From Escherichia coli (GTDB lineage: Bacteria; Pseudomonadota; Gammaproteobacteria; Enterobacterales; Enterobacteriaceae), in the NCBI RefSeq assembly GCF_013122565.1, contig NZ_CP053258.1: 64,000 nt of DNA; one strand, 5' to 3'. Positions 48,095 to 62,953 of this stretch are shown here, piece by piece (position 1 is the first letter of the stretch; each line of letters starts with the position of its first letter). The notes below the pieces were generated by a model that searched no databases, was not told where the DNA came from, and saw only the letters and a program-made list of their open reading frames with translations. The translations under genes and the position numbers were made by a program.

Positions 48095-49188
<1,094 letters not shown>

Positions 49189-49337
49189 TTTACATCCCGG
49201 TAATGCAACAAAAGTTAGAGCTTTTAAACGCTGCTACTATACGCGCGCGATTGAGGTTTGGGAATGAGGGCAAGTTAAGGGAGCGTAAAAATTTATGGGC
49301 CTGAAGCGGCCCATAATTTTTTAAAGAGAATTCTGAT

Positions 49338-49631
49338 TTAAAAGAAGAAGAAAATCAGCCCGACAATGAGAACAATATCGGCAAGCAATGGGCAAAAAAT
49401 CCCTTGCCAGAGAACCTTCTGCGGACGAAAGCCCACGCCGTGAATCACACCAGCACAGACGGCCCACATCAGCAATAAACCATGCCAGATTTCCAGCTCA
49501 CTGGTCTTCGCGGCAAAACGAGATGGGTCCCAAAACATACATCCTGCTAACAGAAGCGCCATCACGAAGGAAAGCGCCCGCAGGGGGCGCTTGTCCATTA
49601 CCGCATACAAGGTCGCGATAATCTTACTCAT
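49338..49631 (-). CDS. ybgE: Cyd operon inner membrane protein YbgE
   Basis: 97-aa ORF, recognised by position. Confidence 0.88.
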   Translation of the reverse strand: MSKIIATLYAVMDKRPLRALSFVMALLLAGCMFWDPSRFAAKTSELEIWHGLLLMWAVCAGVIHGVGFRPQKVLWQGIFCPLLADIVLIVGLIFFFF

Positions 49632-49744
49632 CAGATGTCTTCTTGACCGGCTTTGCCTGATTCGACGTGCTCAAGCGCCAGCGCGGTGATTACCCCAAAC
49701 GAACAGGCAAGAAGCGTTCCCAGAATCCATGCGAAATACCACAT
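49631..49744 (-). CDS. cydX: Cytochrome bd-I small subunit CydX (YbgT), 37 aa
   Basis: Below the ORF-track cutoff; hand-translated MWYFAWILGTLLACSFGVITALALEHVESGKAGQEDI; its stop shares one nt with the ybgE start. Confidence 0.88.
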   Translation of the reverse strand: MWYFAWILGTLLACSFGVITALALEHVESGKAGQEDI

Positions 49745-49758
49745 TTTTAGCTCCTTAC

Positions 49759-50898
49759 TTAGTACAGAGAGTGGGTGTTACGTTCAATATCTTCTTTGGT
49801 GATACGACCGAACATTTTCCAGTAACACCAGGCGGTGTAGAGCAGAATGATCGGTACCAGAACCACCGCAACCCAGGTCATGACGTTAAGCGTCAGCTGG
49901 CTGGAAGTTGCATCCCACATTGTCAGACTTGCGTTCATCATGGTGCTGGACGGCATCACAAACGGGAACATTGCGATACCGGCAGTCAGGATGATGCAGG
50001 CCAGCGTCAGGGAGGAGAACACAAACGCCCACGCGGCTTTATCCATACGTGCAGTCAGGATGGTCAGCAGCGGCAGAACTACACCCAGTGCCGGAATAGC
50101 CCACAGAATTGGCGTGTTGTTGAAGTTAACCAGCCATGCGCCAGCTTCACGAACCACTACTTTATTCTGCGGGTTAGAGGCTGCGTAATGGTCCATTGTC
50201 GATTTCACGACATAACCATCGATACCGTACATCACCCATACGCCAGCCAGTGCGAAGCAGACCAGTGTCACCAGTGCCGCCACCTGAGCCGTTGCACGGG
50301 TACGCAGGTGCAGTTCGCCCACGGTACGCATTTGCAGATAGGTTGCGCCCTGAGTAATGATCATCCCTACGCTCACCACGCCTGCCAGCAGGCCGAACGG
50401 ATTAAGCAACTGAAAGAAGTTACCGGTGTAGTACAGACGCAGATATTCATCAACGTTGAACGGTACGCCCTGCAACAGGTTACCGAACGCTACACCAATT
50501 ACCAGCGGCGGAACGAAGCTACCAATGAAGATGCCCCAGTCCCACATGTTACGCCAGCGGGTTTCTTCAATCTTGGAGCGGTAGTCAAAACCGACCGGAC
50601 GGAAGAACAAAGACGCCAGCACGAGGATCATCGCCACATAGAAGCCGGAGAACGCAGCGGCATAGACCATCGGCCAGGCAGCAAAGAGTGCGCCGCCCGC
50701 GGTGATCAGCCAAACCTGGTTACCGTCCCAGTGTGGAGCAATGGAGTTAATCATAATTCGACGCTCGGTGTCGTTACGACCGAGAAAACGGGTGAGCATG
50801 CCCACCCCCATGTCGAAACCGTCAGTGACTGCAAAACCAATCAGCAGAACGCCAACCAGCAGCCACCAGATAAAACGCAATACTTCATAATCGATCAT
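49759..50898 (-). CDS. cydB: Cytochrome bd-I ubiquinol oxidase subunit II CydB
   Basis: 379-aa ORF, recognised. Confidence 0.96.
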   Translation of the reverse strand: MIDYEVLRFIWWLLVGVLLIGFAVTDGFDMGVGMLTRFLGRNDTERRIMINSIAPHWDGNQVWLITAGGALFAAWPMVYAAAFSGFYVAMILVLASLFFRPVGFDYRSKIEETRWRNMWDWGIFIGSFVPPLVIGVAFGNLLQGVPFNVDEYLRLYYTGNFFQLLNPFGLLAGVVSVGMIITQGATYLQMRTVGELHLRTRATAQVAALVTLVCFALAGVWVMYGIDGYVVKSTMDHYAASNPQNKVVVREAGAWLVNFNNTPILWAIPALGVVLPLLTILTARMDKAAWAFVFSSLTLACIILTAGIAMFPFVMPSSTMMNASLTMWDATSSQLTLNVMTWVAVVLVPIILLYTAWCYWKMFGRITKEDIERNTHSLY

Positions 50899-50913
50899 TT
50901 GACGACTCCTGTC

Positions 50914-52482
50914 TTAGCGTGCCGGCTGAGTAGTCGTGGAAGACTGCTCAAAGTGATAGCGACCGGTTTTCAGGCTGCTTGGGCCGAGGCGTGCAAACTT
51001 GAACATTAAGAACAATTCTGCCACCAGGAACAGGGTATACAGGCCGCAAATCAGCACCATTGAGAAGATGAGATCGCCTGCGGTCAGTGACGAGTTCGCC
51101 ACAGCTGTCGGCAGCACTTCACCGATAGCCCACGGTTGGCGGCCATATTCAGCCACGAACCAGCCCGCTTCTACAGCAATCCACGGCAGCGGAATACCGT
51201 ACAGCGCGGCGCGCAGCAGCCATTTTTTCTCGCCAATGCGGTTGCGGATGACACTCCAGAAAGAGAGCGCGATGATTGCCAGCAGCAGGAAGCCACACGC
51301 CACCATGATACGGAACGCGAAGTACAGCGGCGCTACACGCGGAATGGAGTCTTTGGTTGCCTGTTGAATCTGAGCTTCAGTCGCATCAGCCACGTTTGGC
51401 GTATAGCGTTTCAGCAGCAGACCGTAACCGAGGTCTTTCTTCATGCTATTGAACTGGTCACGAACCGCCTGGTCGGTAGAACCAGAACGCAGTTGTTCGA
51501 GCAGAGAGTAAGCCTTCATCCCGTTACGAATGCGTTCTTCATGCTGCACCATCAGTTCTTTCAGGCCGATAACTGGAGTATCCACGGAACGCGTTGCAAT
51601 GATGCCCAGCGCGTAAGGGATCTGGATCGCAAATTTGTTCGTCTCCTCTTCCTGATCAGGAATGCCGAACAGAGTAAAGGCAGCAGGCGCAGGTTGCGTT
51701 TCCCACTCGGCTTCAATAGCAGCCAGTTTGGTTTTCTGCACGTCGCCCATTTCGTAACCAGATTCATCACCCAGAACAATAACAGACAGAACGGCAGCCA
51801 TACCGAAGCTGGCAGCGATAGCAAAGGAGCGTTTAGCGAAGGCGAAGTCACGACCTTTCAGCATATACCATGCGCTGATACCGAGGATGAACATCGCGCC
51901 AGTCACATAACCAGACGCTACAGTGTGAACGAATTTCACCTGAGCAACCGGGTTAAGCACCAGCTCGGAGAAGCTCACCATCTCCATACGCATAGTTTCA
52001 AAGTTGAAATCGGACGCGATTGGGTTTTGCATCCAGCCGTTCGCAACCAGAATCCACAGTGCGGACAGGTTTGAACCGAGCGCCACCAGCCAGGTGACAC
52101 ACATATGCTGAACTTTACCCAGACGATCCCAACCGAAGAAGAACAGACCTACAAAGGTGGATTCGAGGAAGAAGGCCATCAGACCTTCGATTGCCAGCGG
52201 CGCACCGAAGATATCCCCTACATAGTGGGAATAGTAAGACCAGTTAGTCCCGAACTGGAACTCCATAGTCAGACCGGTAGCCACACCCAGAGCGAAGTTG
52301 ATACCAAACAACTTGCCCCAGAACTTGGTCATATCTTTATAAATCTGTTTGCCGGAAAGGACGTAGACCGTTTCCATAATGGCCAGCAGGAACGCCATAC
52401 CGAGCGTCAGTGGCACAAAAAGGAAGTGGTACATCGCGGTCAAGGCAAACTGTAAGCGCGACAGTTCGACTATATCTAACAT
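50914..52482 (-). CDS. cydA: Cytochrome bd-I ubiquinol oxidase subunit I CydA, 522 aa
   Basis: ORF 50914..52485, start at second Met ([20 protein letters not shown]). Confidence 0.96.
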
Positions 52483-52819
52483 CATGACTCCTTGCTCATC
52501 GCATGAAGACTCCGAGAGTGAACCCCGTTAGAAAGGGTCACACGCATGCCCCAATACAAAATTATTTGCTCGCCTCTATCGTTGCCATTTCATCAAAAGA
52601 GGAAAAGACAATGATAAAAAAGTTGCAAATATGTTAATGAATAAACCAAATTGATCCCGTAATTATATTACGCCGCAAAATCCTTACAATAAACAGGTTT
52701 TTATTGAGCAAATTTGCATTTTTCGACAGTGATCAATTTATAGCGAAATTGTCACGATCTCACCAATTTGATCTACGACAATTTATCGTGTTTTGCAGAT
52801 TTTTTTCAAGAATTAAAAA

Positions 52820-52833
52820 TTGATTTATATCAA
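52820..52833. promoter_or_regulatory. FNR-consensus palindrome in the cydAB upstream region
   Basis: ttgatttatatcaa = TTGAT-N4-ATCAA exactly, about 340 nt upstream of cydA; the cydAB promoter is known to be FNR/ArcA controlled. Confidence 0.7.
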
Positions 52834-53287
52834 AACTAACCAAATATGTTAATTATGTATAAACCATAGATCATTAGTGATTTTATTGTTAATTTATTGT
52901 GAAATATTTATGCAACACAATTATTACAATGAAAAGGTATAGATAAAAAACCAGTGTTGTATTTAACAGAACCGCCTTATCCACTTTTTATAATACCAAT
53001 TGATTAGAGTAGCCAATTTGTTGCTATTTTACATAACATATTTTTATCAAAGTTAATTGATTGTTGCCTTTATGAGCACCGACCGTAAGCCCGTTATGTT
53101 ATTGTTTCATTGGTAATAATCACTTAAATGTATCGATGGAACAGGTATGACTTAGCGGGAGTGATTGTTTCTGAGTGAACAGGGGCCACTTTTGCCTGAT
53201 AAATGAAAAATGAGCGATTTTTGCAAGTTAGTTTTTCTATAGCCGTGTACGCTCAGCGCCTCGCTTGATTACAATGAGGTTGCTGCT

Positions 53288-54232
53288 ATGAGTCCTGATA
53301 ATATCGGTTCGGCTGTCAATCGCTTCTCAGGTTGGCCATCTAATGATCCTCTAAAAACAGATAAAGAATCAACGACATCACCCGTGACAGTGCAGGTAAT
53401 AAAGATGATTGCCGCCATCCTTGACCCACATCGGATAGTCGTTGGAATCGATACACTTTATACAACGCAGCGCGAAACATTTACCTCAGAGAGTCAACAG
53501 CTCATTGAATCAGCATTGCAAACACTTCATGTGATGAATTTAAATAACCTGGAAACAAATCGCGATGAAGAAGGTCACTATCTGGCTTTTGAATATAACG
53601 TTGACACCTCTGACAGAATAACCGTTTCTGCTTACAATGAAAAAAATCCTGGCTGCTATGGCCAATGTCTTTTAATACAGGATGACGAAACAGACTTATT
53701 CAACCTGATAAAAATTAAAATTTTTGAAGCCAGGCATAATTATGTCGCTCAATTGATGAGCGATCCAGAATTTATGTTCAAATTCAGTTATAGCGCTCAA
53801 CAAAATAGATTAGAACCTCATCTTCTGGTTCCCGCTTATTTCCCTCTAAAAACAAACGAACCGGTTACGCAAGAGGATGTACTGTTACTTTATCGTTTCT
53901 TTAAAATGAATGATGATTTTAACAAATTAACATCAGATGAATACATGAGTATCCTGACACCTCTGATGAAGTGTGAGCGTAGCGTCCACGACAACAACAG
54001 GTATGTGACGGGCAAAGATACCCTTCTTCTGGACTATCCTCCTTCTGGTAACCAGATACATTTCCATGTTTTCCCTGACGAATCAGCAACACTAGTCCTT
54101 TATTTTTCAAACAATGACCTTGAATATTTCGTCTTTGAAAGAGATATTCCGAGCCAGTATCGCTTTTTCAAAATGTTTACCAATCTGGCACTGGTTATAG
54201 ATCAGTTAACCGAAGCCCATAAAATACTTTAA
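53288..54232 (+). CDS. Hypothetical protein (314 aa), AT-rich, no family recognised
   Basis: ORF track; GAGG RBS 7-10 nt upstream; soluble, Ser/Pro/Asn-rich N-terminus. Confidence 0.55.
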   Translation: MSPDNIGSAVNRFSGWPSNDPLKTDKESTTSPVTVQVIKMIAAILDPHRIVVGIDTLYTTQRETFTSESQQLIESALQTLHVMNLNNLETNRDEEGHYLAFEYNVDTSDRITVSAYNEKNPGCYGQCLLIQDDETDLFNLIKIKIFEARHNYVAQLMSDPEFMFKFSYSAQQNRLEPHLLVPAYFPLKTNEPVTQEDVLLLYRFFKMNDDFNKLTSDEYMSILTPLMKCERSVHDNNRYVTGKDTLLLDYPPSGNQIHFHVFPDESATLVLYFSNNDLEYFVFERDIPSQYRFFKMFTNLALVIDQLTEAHKIL

Positions 54233-54312
54233 TTTTCTATATATCCCTATGGCAAATATTGCTAAACAATGCCTGGGGATTAATTTTTATTACTCACGGA
54301 AAGATTTAAATA

Positions 54313-54735
54313 ATGATATCATCTCAGATCTCTTTCAGTACTCTTCCTGTCAATGCAACATACGCTTCAGAGACAACAGTTGACACACAAAAATTCTCTG
54401 ACATCCTCTACTCAGCGGGGTGTTCCCTAAAGGATATGGCTTATCTGAGCAGATGTCTGGCATCAATACACCCGACTATCGCCAAAAACATTTATGAAAC
54501 AGAAAATCTCAGCGATCAAAAATTACTGCATATTGATTGCCGTAGTACAAATGACATCAAGATAAATATCTTTTTTGGTCAGCAACGAGAAGGATTAATT
54601 GAAATTAGTTCTGACACAGTTATTTTTTCGATACTGTCTTCATTGATTGACTCCGCCATTTCTAAATTTCAACATCAAAACCCGGTTAACGGTTCAGTTA
54701 ATCCTGAACTATTGTATGAGGATTATACTGATTAA
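54313..54735 (+). CDS. Hypothetical small acidic protein (140 aa), AT-rich
   Basis: ORF track; 80 nt downstream of the 314-aa ORF on the same strand; Ser-rich N-terminus. Confidence 0.5.
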   Translation: MISSQISFSTLPVNATYASETTVDTQKFSDILYSAGCSLKDMAYLSRCLASIHPTIAKNIYETENLSDQKLLHIDCRSTNDIKINIFFGQQREGLIEISSDTVIFSILSSLIDSAISKFQHQNPVNGSVNPELLYEDYTD

Positions 54736-55281
54736 ATCCACCCTGTCGCGAAAAATGGCCTGCGTTATTGCCAGACGTAATAAAACCTTTGATTAACGTT
54801 ACTCATACTGATAGCACCTTCATGTACCTCTCTTTTTTACGCAAATCAAAAGAGCTAACGAAGGTCATAATTCGCATGAATCATTAACCATTTGTTATTT
54901 TCAACATTACTTTTACATTAAGCAGAAATGAATGGTAGTGAAATTCGACTTAAATTTTATGAAATGCATTTACTTATGGCTAAACCCATATCACTAAAAT
55001 GCAAATTAGAAGTAGATCACAAATATCTCAATACACCAAATCAAGTTAATTTTAAAAATTTAACATTCATGACATTAGTTGACATAACACACTGAATTAA
55101 CATGGAAATTTAAAAACACACTTTAAACAATCATTTCCCGAAAGACATTTTGAAAATAGATCAATTGCAACATTACGGTCAGATAAAGACACTCCTGTGA
55201 TATTAAACCTGTGCCGTTATGAACGGCCATAAATACGACGTGTGTAACTTATTTTACTCTCTGTCTTACAAAGGATTACCC

Positions 55282-55731
55282 ATGAAGAAAGCAACACTTG
55301 TGATTGGCGTTATTGGCGCGGACTGCCATGCAGTAGGCAATAAAGTTCTGGACCGCGTTTTTAGCAACCACGACTTCAGAGTCATTAATCTGGGCGTAAT
55401 GGTCAGCCAGGACGAATATATTGATGCTGCCATTGAAACTGGCGCTGACGCGATTGTCGTCTCCTCTATCTATGGGCATGGCGATATCGACTGTCTGGGC
55501 ATGCGCGAACGCTGCATCGAGCGTGGACTGGGGGACATCCTGCTCTATGTGGGCGGTAACCTGGTGGTAGGAAAACATGACTTCGCTGACGTGGAAAACA
55601 AGTTCAAAGAGATGGGATTTGATCGCGTCTTTGCCCCAAGTCATGACTTAGAAGAGGTTTGTCAGCTGATGGCCCACGATATCAACCAACGTCATGACGT
55701 TGATACTCGCATTCTTGAAGAGGCAATCTGA
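55282..55731 (+). CDS. glmS: Glutamate mutase (methylaspartate mutase) S / sigma subunit, B12-binding, 149 aa
   Basis: ORF 55219..55731 with start at [22 protein letters not shown] (cobalamin-binding DxHxxG-type motif); family assignment from recognised conservation. Confidence 0.85.
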
Positions 55732-57119
55732 TGCAAATCGTCTCTGTCGATATTGGATCGACGTGGACCAAAGCAGCCCTCTTCACCCGGGAGGGGGACG
55801 CGTTAACGTTGGTTAACCACGTACTGACCCCAACCACCACCCATCATCTGGCGAAGGGGTTTTTCTCCAGCCTGAACCAGGTGTTAAACGTAGATAATGC
55901 CCTCCCCCTGTTAAACAGCGGTGAGGTTGCATTGAAGTATTCCTCCTCTGCCAAAGGTGGGCTGGCGGTTGCCGCAATGGGATTGGTGCCTTCTATCACC
56001 CTGGAAACCGCGAAAGTAACCGCTCACTCTGCGGGTGCTAAAATTGCGCAATATTACGCCTACAAGCTGAACCGCCGTGATATCCAGGCACTGGAAGAAA
56101 CGCAGCCCGATATTCTCTTGTTCACCGGCGGCACCGACGGCGGAGAAGAAAGCTACGGACTGAATAACGCCCGTGTGCTGGCAGAATCCAAACTCGACTG
56201 CGCCATTATTTATGCCGGAAACCGGGATATTCAGGACGAGGTGCAGGAGATCCTCGGACATAAAGACCTGACCATCGTCGACAACGTTCTGCCCGATCTT
56301 GACCATCCGAACCCTTTAGCCGCACGCCAGGCTATCTGCGACATATTCCTTAAACGCATCGTTAAAGGGAAAGGGCTGGATGTCATTGTTGATAAAACAG
56401 GCGAAGAACCAATGCCGACACCATGGACGGTCTTTGAACTGGTTAAGGCAATCAGTAACGTCGATCACAGCTGGAAAGAGTTCATGCTGATCGACATGGG
56501 CGGCGCAACCACCGATGTCTATTCCGCCTGTGCCAACACGCTCTCGCCCGACACCGTTTTACACGGCGTACCGGAACCCTTCGTAAAACGGACGGTGGAA
56601 GGCGATCTGGGAATGCGCGTCTCGGCAATGGTGGTTGGTGAAAGTGCGAAAGAGTTAGTCAATGTAAATTTTGCTCAGCAACCCGCACAGCTGGACGCTT
56701 TTTATCATTACCTCCGTCATTTAGTCGCTCATCCCGACTACTTACCCGCGAATGCAGAAGAAAAATATTTCGATACCGTCCTGGCCGGACTGTGTGTGGG
56801 TTATGCCACCGAAAGACATGCGGGCACCAAAAAAGAGGTCTGCACCTGCGTCGGCAATGTCGATTTACAAATGGGACGTGACCTGACAACCGTGCGTAAA
56901 GTCGTCGGATCCGGCGGATGGCTCTCGCGTGCCAGTCAGTTCGATATGCATCACTGGTTGAAATACCGCGAGTTAAACGACGACGGTAAACGCATTCTCT
57001 TACCGACCGAATTTGAATATTACCGCGATTCCCGGGGGCTATTACCACTGCTGGCAAACGTCGCCAGAGTCGATCCGCTGGCCGCCGCGCGCACCAGTAT
57101 TCAATGCTTAACCCTATAA
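55731..57119 (+). CDS. glmL: Glutamate mutase-associated protein GlmL/MutL (ASKHA-like)
   Basis: 462-aa ORF between S and E subunit genes ([18 protein letters not shown]); start shares one nt with the preceding stop. Confidence 0.75.
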   Translation: MQIVSVDIGSTWTKAALFTREGDALTLVNHVLTPTTTHHLAKGFFSSLNQVLNVDNALPLLNSGEVALKYSSSAKGGLAVAAMGLVPSITLETAKVTAHSAGAKIAQYYAYKLNRRDIQALEETQPDILLFTGGTDGGEESYGLNNARVLAESKLDCAIIYAGNRDIQDEVQEILGHKDLTIVDNVLPDLDHPNPLAARQAICDIFLKRIVKGKGLDVIVDKTGEEPMPTPWTVFELVKAISNVDHSWKEFMLIDMGGATTDVYSACANTLSPDTVLHGVPEPFVKRTVEGDLGMRVSAMVVGESAKELVNVNFAQQPAQLDAFYHYLRHLVAHPDYLPANAEEKYFDTVLAGLCVGYATERHAGTKKEVCTCVGNVDLQMGRDLTTVRKVVGSGGWLSRASQFDMHHWLKYRELNDDGKRILLPTEFEYYRDSRGLLPLLANVARVDPLAAARTSIQCLTL

Positions 57120-57137
57120 CAATTAAGGCTGCAATCA

Positions 57138-58583
57138 ATGGAACTTCGAAATAAGAAATTAACCCATGACGAATTCATGACCGAGCGGCAACAGGTACTG
57201 AAAACCTGGGAAACCGGCAAGGATGTTGAAAATTTTGAAGATGGCGTTAAATACCAACAAACCATTCCTGAGCATAAACGCTTCTCTCTCGCCCTGCTGA
57301 AAGCAGACAAGGAAGGTAAAACCCTTAGCCAACCGCGCGCAGGTGTGGCGCTGATGGACGAACACATCGAACTACTGAAAACACTACAAGAAGAGTGCGA
57401 TCTGCTGCCAAGCACCATCGATGCATATACCCGTCTGAATCGGTACGAAGAAGCGGCTGTAGGGATTAAAAAATCCATCGAAGCCGGAACCTCTAAACTG
57501 AACGGTTTACCGGTAGTTAACCACGGAGTCGCAGCTTGCCGTCGCCTCACCGAAACCCTGCAAAAACCGCTACAGATCCGCCACGGCACGCCAGATGCGC
57601 GTCTGCTGGCTGAAATCTCGATGGCCAGTGGCTTTACCAGTTACGAAGGCGGCGGCATTTCCTACAACATTCCGTATGCCAAACGCGTAACGCTGGAAAA
57701 ATCGATCCGCGACTGGCAGTACTGCGACCGTTTAATGGGGATGTATGAAGAACACGGGATCCGCATCAACCGCGAACCATTTGGCCCACTAACGGGTACG
57801 CTGATCCCGCCGTTTATCTCGCACTCTATCGCCATAATCGAAGGCTTGCTGGCGCTGGAACAGGGTGTGAAATCTATCACCGTTGGTTATGGCCAGGTCG
57901 GCAGCCTGACGCAGGATGTTGCGGCGATCCAGTCTCTGCGTGAACTTGCACATGAATACTTTCAGAGCTATGGCTATACCGACTATGAATTAAGTACCGT
58001 GTTTCACCAGTGGATGGGCGGCTTTCCGGAAGACGAATCGAAAGCGTTCGCTATTATCTCCTGGGGCGCAGCCGTCGCGGGGATGTCTGGTGCCACCAAA
58101 GTCATCACCAAAAGTCCGCACGAAGCCTGGGGTATCCCAACTGCCGCTGCCAACATTCAGGGGCTGAAAGCCTCCCGCCAGATGCTCAACATGGTCAATG
58201 AGCAGAAATTCCCGCCATGCCCTGCGGTTGAACTGGAAATTGAACTGATTAAGAGCGAGGTTCGCGCGGTACTGAATAAAGTGTTCGAACTGGGTAATGG
58301 TGATATTGCGCGCGGTACGGTGCTGGCATTTGAAGCGGGCGTACTGGATGTGCCGTTTGCGCCAGCCGCCTGCAACGCGGGCAAAATTCTTCCGGTCCGT
58401 GACAACACCGGCGCGATACGCGTACTGGAAGCCGGAGCCGTTCCATTGCCAAAAGATATTCTCGACCTCCACCACGATTACGTTGCGGAACGCGCACGCT
58501 GTGAAGGACGCCAACCGACATTCCAGATGGTTGTAGATGACATCAATGCTGTATCCCACAGTAAATTAATAGGAAGACCATAA
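57138..58583 (+). CDS. glmE: Glutamate mutase (methylaspartate mutase) E / epsilon subunit
   Basis: 481-aa ORF, characteristic size and position. Confidence 0.8.
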   Translation: MELRNKKLTHDEFMTERQQVLKTWETGKDVENFEDGVKYQQTIPEHKRFSLALLKADKEGKTLSQPRAGVALMDEHIELLKTLQEECDLLPSTIDAYTRLNRYEEAAVGIKKSIEAGTSKLNGLPVVNHGVAACRRLTETLQKPLQIRHGTPDARLLAEISMASGFTSYEGGGISYNIPYAKRVTLEKSIRDWQYCDRLMGMYEEHGIRINREPFGPLTGTLIPPFISHSIAIIEGLLALEQGVKSITVGYGQVGSLTQDVAAIQSLRELAHEYFQSYGYTDYELSTVFHQWMGGFPEDESKAFAIISWGAAVAGMSGATKVITKSPHEAWGIPTAAANIQGLKASRQMLNMVNEQKFPPCPAVELEIELIKSEVRAVLNKVFELGNGDIARGTVLAFEAGVLDVPFAPAACNAGKILPVRDNTGAIRVLEAGAVPLPKDILDLHHDYVAERARCEGRQPTFQMVVDDINAVSHSKLIGRP

Positions 58584-59824
58584 TGAAAATAAAACAGGCC
58601 CTGTTCACCGCTGGCTATTCCTCATTCTATTTCGATGACCAGCAGGCGATAAAAAACGGAGCGGGTCACGACGGCTTTTTTTATACCGGGGAGCCAGTAA
58701 CACAGGGGTTTAACGCCGTACGTCAGGCCGGGGAGTGCGTATCGGTACAGTTGATTCTGGAAAACGGCGCGGTCGCTGTAGGTGACTGTGCTGCCGTACA
58801 GTATTCCGGGGCAGGTGGTCGCGATCCACTGTTCCTCGCAGAGCACTTTATTCCGTTCCTCAACGACCATATTAAGCCATTACTGGTAGGCCGCGATGTG
58901 GATACTTTCCTGCCGAATGCCCGTTTCTTCGACAAATTGCGTATTGACGGCAACTTGCTGCATACCGCCGTGCGCTACGGATTATCACAGGCGCTGCTTG
59001 ATGCTACCGCGCTGGCAACCGGCCGTCTGAAAACTGAAGTGGTCTGTGATGAATGGCAGTTGCCACGCGTGGCGGAATCCATTCCATTATTTGGTCAGAG
59101 CGGCGACGATCGATATATCGCCGTCGATAAGATGATCCTTAAGGGCATCGACGTGCTGCCCCATGCGCTGATTAATAACGTCGAAGAGAAGCTGGGCTTT
59201 AAAGGTGAAAAACTGAGCGAATATGTCCGCTGGTTGTCGGATCGCATTCTAAGCAAGCGCACCAGCGCGCGCTACCACCCTACCCTGCACATCGATGTAT
59301 ACGGCACTATCGGTCTGATCTTCGATATGGATCCGCTCCGCTGTGCGCAATACATCGCCAGCCTGGAAAAAGAAGCGCAAGGCCTGCCGCTCTACATCGA
59401 AGGGCCGGTCGATGCCGGTAACAAGCCCGATCAAATTCGCCTGCTGACCGCGATTACCAAAGAGCTGACGCGCCTCGGTTCCGGCGTGAAAATTGTGGCC
59501 GATGAATGGTGTAACACCTACCAGGATATTGTTGATTTCACTGATGCTGCCAGTTGTCACATGGTGCAAATCAAAACCCCGGATCTGGGCAGTATTCACA
59601 ACATCGTCGATGCGGTTCTTTACTGCAACAGCCACAGCATGGAAGCGTACCAGGGCGGCACCTGCAATGAAACTGATGTCAGTGCCCGCACCTGTGTCCA
59701 CGTCGCCCTTGCCGCTCGCCCTATGCGTATGCTGGTAAAACCAGGGATGGGCTTTGACGAAGGCCTCGATATCGTCTTCAACGAAATGAATCGTACTATC
59801 GCGCTGTTGCAGGCTAAGGATTAA
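58583..59824 (+). CDS. Methylaspartate ammonia-lyase (enolase superfamily)
   Basis: 413-aa ORF (MKIKQALFTAGYSSFYFDDQQAIKNGAGHDGFFYTGEP...), directly after the mutase genes. Confidence 0.8.
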   Translation: MKIKQALFTAGYSSFYFDDQQAIKNGAGHDGFFYTGEPVTQGFNAVRQAGECVSVQLILENGAVAVGDCAAVQYSGAGGRDPLFLAEHFIPFLNDHIKPLLVGRDVDTFLPNARFFDKLRIDGNLLHTAVRYGLSQALLDATALATGRLKTEVVCDEWQLPRVAESIPLFGQSGDDRYIAVDKMILKGIDVLPHALINNVEEKLGFKGEKLSEYVRWLSDRILSKRTSARYHPTLHIDVYGTIGLIFDMDPLRCAQYIASLEKEAQGLPLYIEGPVDAGNKPDQIRLLTAITKELTRLGSGVKIVADEWCNTYQDIVDFTDAASCHMVQIKTPDLGSIHNIVDAVLYCNSHSMEAYQGGTCNETDVSARTCVHVALAARPMRMLVKPGMGFDEGLDIVFNEMNRTIALLQAKD

Positions 59825-59827
59825 CAA

Positions 59828-61198
59828 ATGGCTCGTTCTTTTAAAGTCTTATCGCCAACGGCAATCCTCGGGTATGGATTCCCGGAAGAGAGCTTCCGCA
59901 AAGCGATGGCAGAATCGCCCGATCTGATCGCCGTTGATGCCGGCTCTTCCGATCCAGGCCCCCACTACCTCGGGGCAGGCAAACCGTTTACCGATCGCGC
60001 AGGGGTCAAGCGCGATCTGCGCTATATGATCACCGCAGGCGTGCAAAATAATATACCGGTGGTGATCGGAACGGCTGGCGGTTCTGGTGCCGCACCACAC
60101 CTGGAGTGGTGCCGAGAAATAATTCATGAGATTGCCCGGGAAGAGCACCTCTCGTTCTCGATGGCGTTGATCCCGGCAGACGTTGACAAAGCCATCGTCC
60201 ACCAGGCGCTGGATAACGGCAAAATCACGGCGCTGGATTTTGTCCCGCCGTTAACCCACGACGCGATTGACGAAAGTACGTATATCGTTGCGCAAATGGG
60301 CATCGAACCCTTCCAGCGGGCTCTGAAAGAAGGCGCGCAAGTGGTGCTGGGCGGGCGCGCTTACGACCCGGCCTGCTTTGCTGCGCTCCCGATCATGCAA
60401 GGCTTTGATGAAGGTCTGGCGCTGCATTGTGGGAAAATCCTTGAGTGCGCAGCAATCGCCGCAACGCCCGGCTCAGGCTCTGACTGTGCGATGGGCATCA
60501 TTGATGACAACGGCTTTACGCTGAAGACATTTAATCCGAAGCGTAAATTTACCGAAACGTCAGCAGCTGCACACACACTGTATGAAAAATCCGATCCCTA
60601 CTTCCTGCCAGGACCTGGCGGCGTGTTGAACCTGAAAGGCTGCACATTTAAAGCAGTCAATGACGGCGAAGTCTACGTCAGCGGTTCTAAGCATGAAGAA
60701 ACGCCGTATGCCCTGAAACTGGAAGGTGCACGACGGGTGGGCTTCCGCTGTCTGACCATCGCCGGAACGCGCGACCCGATCATGATCGCCGGGATCGATA
60801 AAATCATCGATGAAGTCAAAATCAGCGTTTCGCGTAACCTGTCGCTTGACGATGACAGCATTCGCATCAATTTCCACCTGTACGGCAAAAACGGGGTGAT
60901 GGGCGACCATGAACCGATGCAAACTACCGGGCATGAGCTGGGGATTGTCCTTGATGTAGTTGCACCGACCCAGGAAATTGCCAACAGCGTTTGCTCGCTG
61001 GTGCGCTCTACCATGCTGCACTACGGCTATGAAAACCGCATCGCTACCGCAGGCAACCTGGCGTTCCCGTTCTCCCCTTCTGATATCCAGGGCGGGCCGG
61101 TATACGAATTTTCCATATATCACCTGATTGAAGCCAACGACGCTCTGCGTTTTGATTTCCATATTGAACAGGTGACGCCAGAAGGAGTTCAGGTATGA
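59828..61198 (+). CDS. DUF1446 (AtuA-like) family protein, function unknown
   Basis: 456-aa ORF; family assignment from memory of conserved N-terminal region; unverified. Confidence 0.55.
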   Translation: MARSFKVLSPTAILGYGFPEESFRKAMAESPDLIAVDAGSSDPGPHYLGAGKPFTDRAGVKRDLRYMITAGVQNNIPVVIGTAGGSGAAPHLEWCREIIHEIAREEHLSFSMALIPADVDKAIVHQALDNGKITALDFVPPLTHDAIDESTYIVAQMGIEPFQRALKEGAQVVLGGRAYDPACFAALPIMQGFDEGLALHCGKILECAAIAATPGSGSDCAMGIIDDNGFTLKTFNPKRKFTETSAAAHTLYEKSDPYFLPGPGGVLNLKGCTFKAVNDGEVYVSGSKHEETPYALKLEGARRVGFRCLTIAGTRDPIMIAGIDKIIDEVKISVSRNLSLDDDSIRINFHLYGKNGVMGDHEPMQTTGHELGIVLDVVAPTQEIANSVCSLVRSTMLHYGYENRIATAGNLAFPFSPSDIQGGPVYEFSIYHLIEANDALRFDFHIEQVTPEGVQV

Positions 61199-61512
61199 AA
61201 CAGTCAATTGTCTCACTGGCGCAAGTCATTCGTTCGAAAAATGCCGGTCCTTACGAACTGGTTTTAGATATTTTATTTAAAACGAAAGAAAACTATGAGC
61301 GAGTTAAATCATCAGGGCAATTAACCCCAGAACTGATTGCGCGCTTATATCATGTTGAACCTGACTTTATTCATCGTATTGTCTGGTTTGATCCTTCTAA
61401 CGCAGTAAAAATCGTCATGCCACGAGATATTATCTCCGGGAATGTAGGTGACAATGATGTCTATGGTGCACAGCAACATGCACCTTTATTAAATATGAGT
61501 TTCGATTTGTAA
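61195..61512 (+). CDS. Small protein (105 aa), likely DUF4387 partner of the DUF1446 protein
   Basis: Start overlaps the upstream stop by 4 nt (ATGA), which is direct evidence of tight gene coupling; family name from memory. Confidence 0.5.
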   Translation: MKQSIVSLAQVIRSKNAGPYELVLDILFKTKENYERVKSSGQLTPELIARLYHVEPDFIHRIVWFDPSNAVKIVMPRDIISGNVGDNDVYGAQQHAPLLNMSFDL

Positions 61513-61672
61513 AAATCCGAACACTTTTAGCCAACTGACATCCCATCACTTATTGCAGTTCAACACTTCAGCTATTTGTAAGGTTGTAATAGCAGGTAGA
61601 TGCCTGAGTCTCTATTCAGGCATCTACTTCTCCTGATTCTGATTTATCGCCGTGCACCTGATGGAGGAAAAA

Positions 61673-62953
61673 ATGAAGAAAATAAGTTTAACCACGATGA
61701 TTCTTTTGGCGCTGGTACTTGGAATGATTATCGGCGTAGTGCTCAATAACACTGCTTCACCGGAAACCGCAAAACTCTATGCGCAAGAAATATCGATATT
61801 CACGACGATTTTCTTACGACTGATAAAAATGATTATCGCTCCGTTAGTGGTCTCTACCCTGGTGGTAGGTATAGCTAAAATGGGCGATGCCAAAGCCCTT
61901 GGTCGTATTTTTTCTAAAACACTTTTTTTATTTATTTGCGCCTCATTGCTGTCAATTGCCTTAGGCTTGATAACAGTAAATTTCTTCATGCCAGGCACAG
62001 GAATTAATTTTGTTGCACACGGAGCCGAAACCACCGGAGTGGTCGCGTCAGAACCCTTTACGCTAAAAGTATTTATTTCGCATGCTTTCCCCACCAGCAT
62101 TGTCGATGCCATGGCGCACAATGAAATTTTGCAAATCGTGGTGTTCTCAATTTTCCTCGGCTGTAGCCTGACGGCGATTGGCGAGAAAGGCAGCGCCATC
62201 GTTCACGCCTTAGATTCGCTGGCACATGCCATGTTAAAGCTCACTGGCTACGTCATGCTCTTCGCTCCCCTGACCGTATTCGCCGCTATTTCAGCATTGA
62301 TTGCTGAACGAGGACTGGCAGTTATGGTGAGCGCCGGGATCTTTATGGGTGAATTTTATTTCACCATGTTGTTACTTTGGGTACTGCTTATCGGTCTGGC
62401 CATCGTTTATGTCGGCCCCTGCATCAGACGCCTGACCCGCGCCCTTTCGGAACCCGCCCTGCTGGCATTTACCACATCCAGTTCTGAAGCGGCTTTTCCG
62501 GGAACGCTTGAAAAACTGGAGCAATTTGGCGTTTCCCCCAAAATTGCCAGCTTTGTCTTACCCATTGGCTACTCATTTAATCTCGTTGGATCAATGGCCT
62601 ACTGCTCCTTCGCCACAGTTTTCATCGCCCAGGCCTGCAATATCCATTTATCCATCGGTGAGCAAATCACCATGCTGTTGATCCTGATGTTGACCTCGAA
62701 AGGAATGGCTGGCGTACCACGCGCCTCAATGGTGGTTATCGCCGCCACGCTCAACCAGTTCAATATTCCGGAAGCAGGGCTGATCTTGCTGATGGGCGTT
62801 GATCCGTTCCTTGATATGGGGCGTTCCGCGACAAACGTCATGAGCAACGCAATGGGCGCTGCGATGGTGAGTCGGTGGGAAGGCGAACATTTCGGCGAGG
62901 GCTGTCGGGGTAAAGCATTAAAACCCAATGAATCGAACGTTGCTCTGCCCTGA
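61673..62953 (+). CDS. Dicarboxylate/amino acid:cation symporter (DAACS, GltP-like), probably glutamate/aspartate uptake
   Basis: ORF 61652..62953; start chosen at ATG 61673 with GGAGG RBS; polytopic membrane protein with GltP-family character. Confidence 0.8.
   Translation: MKKISLTTMILLALVLGMIIGVVLNNTASPETAKLYAQEISIFTTIFLRLIKMIIAPLVVSTLVVGIAKMGDAKALGRIFSKTLFLFICASLLSIALGLITVNFFMPGTGINFVAHGAETTGVVASEPFTLKVFISHAFPTSIVDAMAHNEILQIVVFSIFLGCSLTAIGEKGSAIVHALDSLAHAMLKLTGYVMLFAPLTVFAAISALIAERGLAVMVSAGIFMGEFYFTMLLLWVLLIGLAIVYVGPCIRRLTRALSEPALLAFTTSSSEAAFPGTLEKLEQFGVSPKIASFVLPIGYSFNLVGSMAYCSFATVFIAQACNIHLSIGEQITMLLILMLTSKGMAGVPRASMVVIAATLNQFNIPEAGLILLMGVDPFLDMGRSATNVMSNAMGAAMVSRWEGEHFGEGCRGKALKPNESNVALP

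Follow-up and report, generated by a model that had tools for sequence, protein, structure and literature searches.

The one-nucleotide cydX–ybgE overlap of Escherichia coli: geometry, conservation and probable translational coupling

The cydX–ybgE junction among known overlapping genes

In a phage system, a downstream start without a usable ribosome-binding site is said to depend on termination at the adjacent upstream gene, a dependence reportedly demonstrated by experiment. The cydX–ybgE junction of Escherichia coli resembles that system in concept, with the difference that the dependence is inferred here. Among E. coli genes, only one spacing is commoner than an overlap of one nucleotide (−1), and spacings of −8 to +6 nt account for 707 of the 2987 unidirectional pairs; such close pairs are enriched for subunits of the same complex (30.4% versus 6.8%), and coupling of their translation needs an overlap or a very short gap (PMC10666635). 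Of five native E. coli pairs with overlapping genes that were assayed directly, four were coupled; all five overlapped by 4 nt, and cydX–ybgE was not included. The overlapping pair bioBF, with a weak Shine-Dalgarno (SD) sequence, initiated de novo and was not coupled (PMC6728339). The junction described here belongs to the same class as the −4 (ATGA) and −1 (TGATG or TAATG) coupled pairs (Huber et al. 2019, PMC6728339; Huber et al. 2023, PMC10666635), and its stop–start distance of −1 nt falls inside the range of about −8 to +10 nt taken for coupling (PMC10666635). It departs from the same-complex enrichment of coupled pairs in that YbgE is absent from the solved bd-I structures.

The junction lies in a window of 64,000 nt of E. 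coli DNA (RefSeq assembly GCF_013122565.1, contig NZ_CP053258.1), to which all positions without a locus label refer (Table 1). Read on the minus strand, the sequence runs ...GGT CAA GAA GAC ATC TGA TGA GTA AGA..., and base 49631 is common to the cydX stop and the ybgE start. An initial sequence-only reading had stated that the last base of the cydX TGA is the A of the ybgE ATG; the minus-strand reading bears this out, and a mechanical open reading frame (ORF) list gives identical coordinates for both genes. That list was run with a minimum of 20 aa to show cydX. At the default minimum of 60 aa the gene would not be listed, in keeping with the earlier remark that it is missing from the ORF track owing to its size. 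The cydX stop is directly followed by a second in-frame TGA (tandem stops, 49631–49636, minus strand), which arises because the second ybgE codon begins with A; the A needed for it is present in 81% of the 81 loci compared below.

The identity of both genes is secure. The 37-aa cydX product (MWYFAWILGTLLACSFGVITALALEHVESGKAGQEDI) is identical to the K-12 CydX sequence printed in a published supplement, scores 53.9 bits against PF08173 (cut-off 26.2) and 70.7 bits against the equivalog model TIGR02106 (cut-off 31.6), and reaches just 21.7 bits against NF011333, the model of the bd-II paralogue (cut-off 57). It is a full-length match to the 37-residue chain X of PDB 6RKO (E = 8.9e-22), and its sequence is found in nine PDB entries. 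YbgE scores 116.1 bits against PF09600 (cut-off 25.2), 141.8 bits against TIGR02112 (cut-off 89.55) and 185.2 bits against NF007881 (cut-off 116), the last over residues 1–97 of 97.

A 501-nt region around the junction matches three complete E. coli genomes at 100% identity and is carried by 5425 of 5426 complete E. coli genomes, which excludes the frame-shifting sequencing difference that the first reading had named as its refutation. RefSeq annotates cydB, cydX and ybgE at the match in every record listed, and strain PT62, 100% identical to the window across the region, has the shared base annotated likewise. The K-12 MG1655 annotation places cydX (b4515) at 774196..774309 and ybgE (b0735) at 774309..774602, with the same 1-nt overlap, so that the gene names proposed from the letters alone agree with both RefSeq and K-12. 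It is essentially certain that the junction is the annotated border between the last two genes of the E. coli cydA–cydB–cydX–ybgE operon. The overlap is therefore already known, being present in the reference annotation; its class is a textbook one and its value as a discovery is small.

K-12 MG1655 shares the two genes, their 37-aa and 97-aa products, the TGATG overlap and the flanking gene order with the window, which comes from another E. coli strain and differs in the cluster upstream of cydA. At about 53000–62000 on the plus strand the window carries a methylaspartate mutase/methylaspartate ammonia-lyase cluster, where K-12 has mngB. In PT62, PrpF-domain and LysR-family genes hold IS1, IS4-like and IS3 elements, about 3.6 kb in all, which are absent from the window.

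Overlaps of this kind are common. A mechanical scan of the window for stop/ATG overlaps between an open frame of at least 30 codons and one of at least 60 returned 36, and the TGATG motif alone is thus not beyond chance. Three other annotated 1-nt overlaps in the window join real genes (Table 1), and 4-nt overlaps join bioB–bioF, ybgC–tolQ (GTGA) and an atuA-family gene with a DUF4387 gene.

Table 1 Features of the cydX–ybgE locus, other overlaps in the window, and related sequences in other loci.
Feature	Position	Strand	Basis or remark
cydB, bd-I subunit II, 379 aa	49759..50898	−	ORF list; RefSeq annotation of identical sequence; stop TAA 49761–49759
cydX Shine-Dalgarno AAGGAG, 6 nt 5′ of ATG	49751..49756	−	Direct reading; duplex with 16S 3′ end, −8.4 kcal/mol
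cydX (formerly ybgT), single-helix bd-I subunit, 37 aa	49631..49744 (including stop)	−	ATG 49744–49742, stop TGA 49633–49631; PF08173, TIGR02106, PDB 6RKO chain X, RefSeq and K-12
Purine run AAGAAGA in last cydX codons, 7–13 nt 5′ of ybgE ATG	49638..49644	−	Conservation; duplex energy
TGATG junction (read 49633..49629)	49629..49633	−	Sequence reading, ORF list, K-12 annotation, T[GA]ATG in 80/81 loci
ybgE, 97-aa predicted inner-membrane protein, last gene of cyd operon	49338..49631	−	ATG 49631–49629, stop TAA 49340–49338; PF09600, NF007881
Intrinsic-terminator-like hairpin and T-run, 22 nt past ybgE stop	49293..49316	−	Terminator scan: 9-bp stem, 5 GC pairs, tail ATTTTT
modA–modB overlap, TAATG	28312	−
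glmS–glmL overlap, TGATG	55729	+
Methylaspartate mutase subunit E/methylaspartate ammonia-lyase overlap, TAATG	58581	+
Repeat inside ybgE 5′ coding end, same site	L029:2400–2530, L058:1110–1240, L069:2394–2524
Related repeat copies	about L023:2950–3080, L044:2957–3090, L045:2957–3090
CydX–YbgE fusion ORFs, 131–135 aa	P0002–P0006, P0012, P0014, P0018

Transcript, translation signals and the ybgE start codon

The gene order cydA–cydB–cydX–ybgE–ybgC–tolQ–tolR is the same in the window and in K-12. No intergenic base separates cydX from ybgE, and the sole strong terminator-like hairpin lies after ybgE, where it likely marks the end of the cydABX–ybgE transcript. This hairpin is terminator-like on both strands, and a sigma70-like promoter match lies past it, ahead of ybgC (49264–49236, minus strand). 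The pair lies on one transcript, subject to the caveat of a weak sigma54 ChIP site within cydX, and both cydX and ybgE RNAs are co-induced with cydAB in microaerobiosis (PMC8910356). A search of either strand of 48500–53500 returned no Rfam family at E ≤ 1.

The sigma54 site brings up a reading in which ybgE is expressed largely from its own promoter within cydX and is transcriptionally uncoupled from the cyd operon. A table in PMC4591121 lists it as the intragenic ChIP-seq site IS08 (TGGGAACGCTTCTTGCC), in cydX and pointing to ybgE, and the motif maps to 49706–49722 on the minus strand of the window. In an excerpt of that table IS08 is among the lower values in both numeric columns (1 and 6.849). 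Its motif occupies codons of the strongly conserved LGTLLAC segment of CydX, the conservation of which needs no promoter role, and a transcript from IS08 would hold the last ~25 cydX codons without the cydX start. Given also the co-induction of ybgE RNA with cydAB and cydX, we find a separate promoter highly improbable as the main source of ybgE expression; IS08 would be a minor independent route at most.

At the level of translation, cydX sits directly 3′ of cydB with a ribosome-binding site of its own, its ATG lying 14 nt past the cydB stop; this gap is 13–17 nt in 79 of the loci compared below, and exactly 14 nt in 69 of those. The duplex with the anti-SD sequence has an energy of −8.4 kcal/mol for cydX and −6.9 kcal/mol for cydB. 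For ybgE, the 18 nt upstream of the ATG give −2.4 kcal/mol, exactly what random windows of that length from the locus give at the median. Over the 81 loci the medians are −8.4 kcal/mol for cydX and −3.1 kcal/mol for ybgE. As such, ybgE is without a Shine-Dalgarno sequence. The AAGAAGA run sits at SD distance from the ybgE ATG and pairs weakly with the anti-SD. Numbered from the stop, the run shows 93–100% conservation at positions −11 to −7 and −5, two third-codon positions among them, and position −6 is G in 63% of loci. The run may be a weak positioning element, or may merely keep the site unstructured.

RNA structure masking the ybgE start is ruled out, since the 111-nt junction region folds with −28.4 kcal/mol against a shuffle mean of −28.6 kcal/mol (z = 0.07). 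The start region, an A-rich stretch, is unpaired in both the MFE and the centroid fold. One of the two general models of coupling (PMC12548453; PMC6728339) invokes RNA unfolding, and would have the ybgE start sequestered with cydX coding sequence and melted by cydX-translating ribosomes. A region no more stable than its shuffles, a junction unpaired in the centroid and the lack of an Rfam match in the region make this model very unlikely here.

The overlap might otherwise be a by-product of genome compaction, with ybgE initiating de novo at an accessible, A-rich and SD-poor site independently of cydX translation. The unpaired start and the purine run at SD distance speak for it. De novo initiation was found for bioBF, which overlaps with a very weak SD (PMC6728339), and correct genome-wide initiation without mRNA–rRNA pairing is reported in PMC7043885. 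The anti-SD energy of ybgE, no different from that of random windows, argues the other way, as does comparative evidence given in the next section. De novo initiation is a reading to be taken seriously, which we nevertheless consider unlikely.

The 1-nt overlap is real only if the annotated ybgE ATG is the true start. This ATG is the first ATG, GTG or TTG past the upstream in-frame stop, and YbgE residues 4–11 (IIAxLYAV), ahead of the internal Met12, show protein-level conservation in 19 genera. In the 49 ungapped loci, ybgE codons 1–11 vary by 0.55/0.49/0.89 at codon positions 1/2/3, with the third highest, which is a coding pattern. The 30 nt 5′ of the ATG show such a pattern in the cydX frame only (0.76/0.39/0.98), the ybgE frame being inverted there (0.98/0.76/0.47). 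Periodicity thus follows the cydX frame before the junction and the ybgE frame after it, so the reading frame switches at the junction. A start at Met12 is ruled out by the conserved residues 4–11 together with the coding periodicity of codons 1–11; Leclercia (L064) alone appears to use Met12, after a frameshifting deletion.

The frame relation between the genes also raises the idea of a programmed −1 frameshift late in cydX that would yield a CydX–YbgE fusion, as ybgE is in the −1 frame of cydX, open for 13 codons before the ATG, and a few 131–135-aa database proteins carry both Pfam domains. Every fusion has a different frameshift point within the last ~13 cydX codons. The fusions, which come from metagenome or read-archive assemblies, have 1–8 members each, compared with hundreds to thousands for the separate 97-aa protein. 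Inspection by eye of the last 13 codons revealed no canonical X XXY YYZ slippery heptamer, no stimulatory structure is present, and the periodicity upstream of the ATG is confined to the cydX frame. The scattered frameshift points, the small membership and the lack of a heptamer or stimulatory structure rule out a programmed event for practical purposes; we give it almost no credence. The fusion ORFs are most likely indel errors or sporadic mutations.

Conservation of the overlap and loci in which it is broken

The window was compared with 80 species-representative loci from a YbgE profile search (the best 80 of 229 hits), giving 81 loci. An ATG shares its A with the cydX stop in 80 of them, a figure that overstates the independent support, since the 80 loci are all from Enterobacteriaceae and phylogenetically related. 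A full in-frame YbgE is encoded from the overlapping ATG in 76. Over the same loci the cydX stop codon varies (TGA in 53, TAA in 27, TAG in one), as does the length of CydX (32–38 aa), and third-codon positions near the junction are almost saturated (1.0–1.9 bits). A new result is that 80 of 81 species-level loci retain the overlap geometry despite varying stop codon and CydX length. The conservation of the −1 geometry exceeds chance, whereas the TGATG motif by itself does not. That the exact geometry outlasts changes in both stop codon and CydX length argues against de novo initiation at a site overlapping through compaction. Start and stop codons are each conserved for reasons of their own, which also makes the conservation overstate independent support.

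Outside this clade the arrangement loosens. An exhaustive profile search finds only 108 clusters at 50% identity in the YbgE family, and ybgE directly follows cydX in every one of the 81 Enterobacteriaceae loci, the window among them, as well as in 10 of 11 sampled distant lineages. The ten distant lineages with an upstream cydX show spacings of −1, −1, −11, −14, −8, −8, −4, +1, +3 and +68 nt, nine of the ten lying between −14 and +3 nt. The spacings vary yet with one exception stay short, which indicates that the pair is almost always tightly packed and that the exact −1 overlap is a feature of the enterobacterial clade.

A few loci provide natural experiments. Codons 7–8 of ybgE are interrupted by a dispersed repeat of ~127 nt in Raoultella terrigena, a Lelliottia species and one MAG (Table 1). 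The same repeat family occurs in the ybgE–ybgC spacer of three other species (Pseudocitrobacter, Citrobacter). We take the repeat to be of the ERIC type, its core matching the ERIC primer sequence within 2–3 mismatches. All three species with the insertion keep ybgE intact: the right end of the element supplies a new ATG (GAGG-N7-ATGA) with an SD of −11.4, −5.8 and −5.8 kcal/mol, respectively. A leftover chimeric ORF of 44–45 codons begins at the original TGATG, and its TGA overlaps the new ATG by 4 nt (ATGA). Similarly, a strong SD (−10.0 kcal/mol) precedes a ybgE homologue whose contig, over the 325 nt that it extends upstream, contains no cydX. An SD is thus gained where the overlap is broken or cydX is absent upstream, which suggests that the normal ybgE site is not self-sufficient and speaks against de novo initiation as the usual route.

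One distant lineage (L087/L088) is a counter-example. Its ybgE is intact although it follows cydX by +68 nt with no SD (−3.0 kcal/mol), as de novo initiation would allow. The 68-nt spacer in this lineage holds a perfect hairpin (CTCTGTGGC...GCCACAGAG; L087:2433–2500, L088:1244–1311).

In Leclercia adecarboxylata NCTC13032 (L064:2480–2520), TGATG is retained, but through a short deletion the overlapping ATG is no longer in frame with the rest of ybgE. The sole in-frame ybgE start of this locus is Met12, 24 nt past the cydX stop, and its ybgE represents either a truncated YbgE or an assembly error.

Probable coupling of translation and the place of YbgE

The conserved geometry, the lack of both an SD and a masking structure at ybgE, and the appearance of an SD where the overlap is broken together favour coupling of cydX and ybgE by termination-reinitiation, which is the best explanation of the junction and, judged on comparative sequence data, a probable one. 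Ribosomes would load at the strong Shine-Dalgarno of cydX and read its 37 codons, and termination at the UGA would put them right on the ybgE AUG. Some terminating ribosomes would then reinitiate at this AUG rather than leave the mRNA. Because ybgE has no SD of its own, YbgE synthesis would depend on, and be capped by, translation of CydX. YbgE would be made from the mRNA that also yields CydX and at the same place on the membrane, in an amount probably below that of CydX.

Several observations weigh against such coupling. The E. coli pairs examined directly overlap by 4 nt and not by 1 nt, and among them bioBF is uncoupled (PMC6728339). The unpaired, A-rich ybgE start could permit SD-independent de novo initiation, the ybgE of L087/L088 lacks an SD even though 68 nt separate it from cydX, and YbgE protein went undetected in one proteome study (PMC8910356). 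A limited literature search found no coupling experiment on cydX–ybgE. Comparative support for SD-less termination-reinitiation is a tidy addition, not a discovery. With a 1-nt overlap, no SD and an upstream gene of 37 codons, the junction makes a clean test case for whether reinitiation can work without SD help.

The sequence-only reading had gone from the overlap to a tight coupling of the small oxidase subunit with ybgE. As translational coupling, that claim is plausible in light of the kept geometry, the SD-less ybgE and the SD found where the overlap is broken. A functional tie of YbgE to the bd-I oxidase, at which the wording hints, is not supported. CydX is part of bd-I, and no PDB chain matches YbgE at E ≤ 1. 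The bd-I structures contain CydA, CydB, CydX and CydH (YnhF, encoded elsewhere) only, without YbgE, according to reviews and 2026 cryo-EM work (PMC8951039; PMC13189123). Placing a kanamycin cassette at the border of the two genes, cydX and ybgE, caused no oxidase-deficiency phenotype in growth or with beta-mercaptoethanol (PMC6005532). Neither CydX nor YbgE was detected by proteomics, though their RNAs are co-induced (PMC8910356). The overlap itself tells nothing about YbgE as an oxidase subunit, and on current evidence YbgE is not a stable one.

A bolder version of the coupling scheme would make YbgE production strictly dependent on CydX translation by way of a −1 overlap without SD. This overlap would have been held through the history of the Enterobacteriaceae and rebuilt as a TGATG-then-ATGA relay after repeat insertion, because YbgE would serve CydX or bd-I, transiently and sub-stoichiometrically, as a factor for insertion or assembly where they are synthesized. 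This version is speculative and, in our estimate, rather improbable. If true, it would explain why YbgE is conserved beside cydX, missing from purified complexes and without phenotype in standard assays. YbgE itself is conserved as a membrane protein whose gene stays with the bd-I operon. A fold search of its AlphaFold2 model against the PDB gave no match (all E > 4). The model itself is confident (pLDDT 91.6) and consists of three long hydrophobic helices preceded by a short one at the N terminus.
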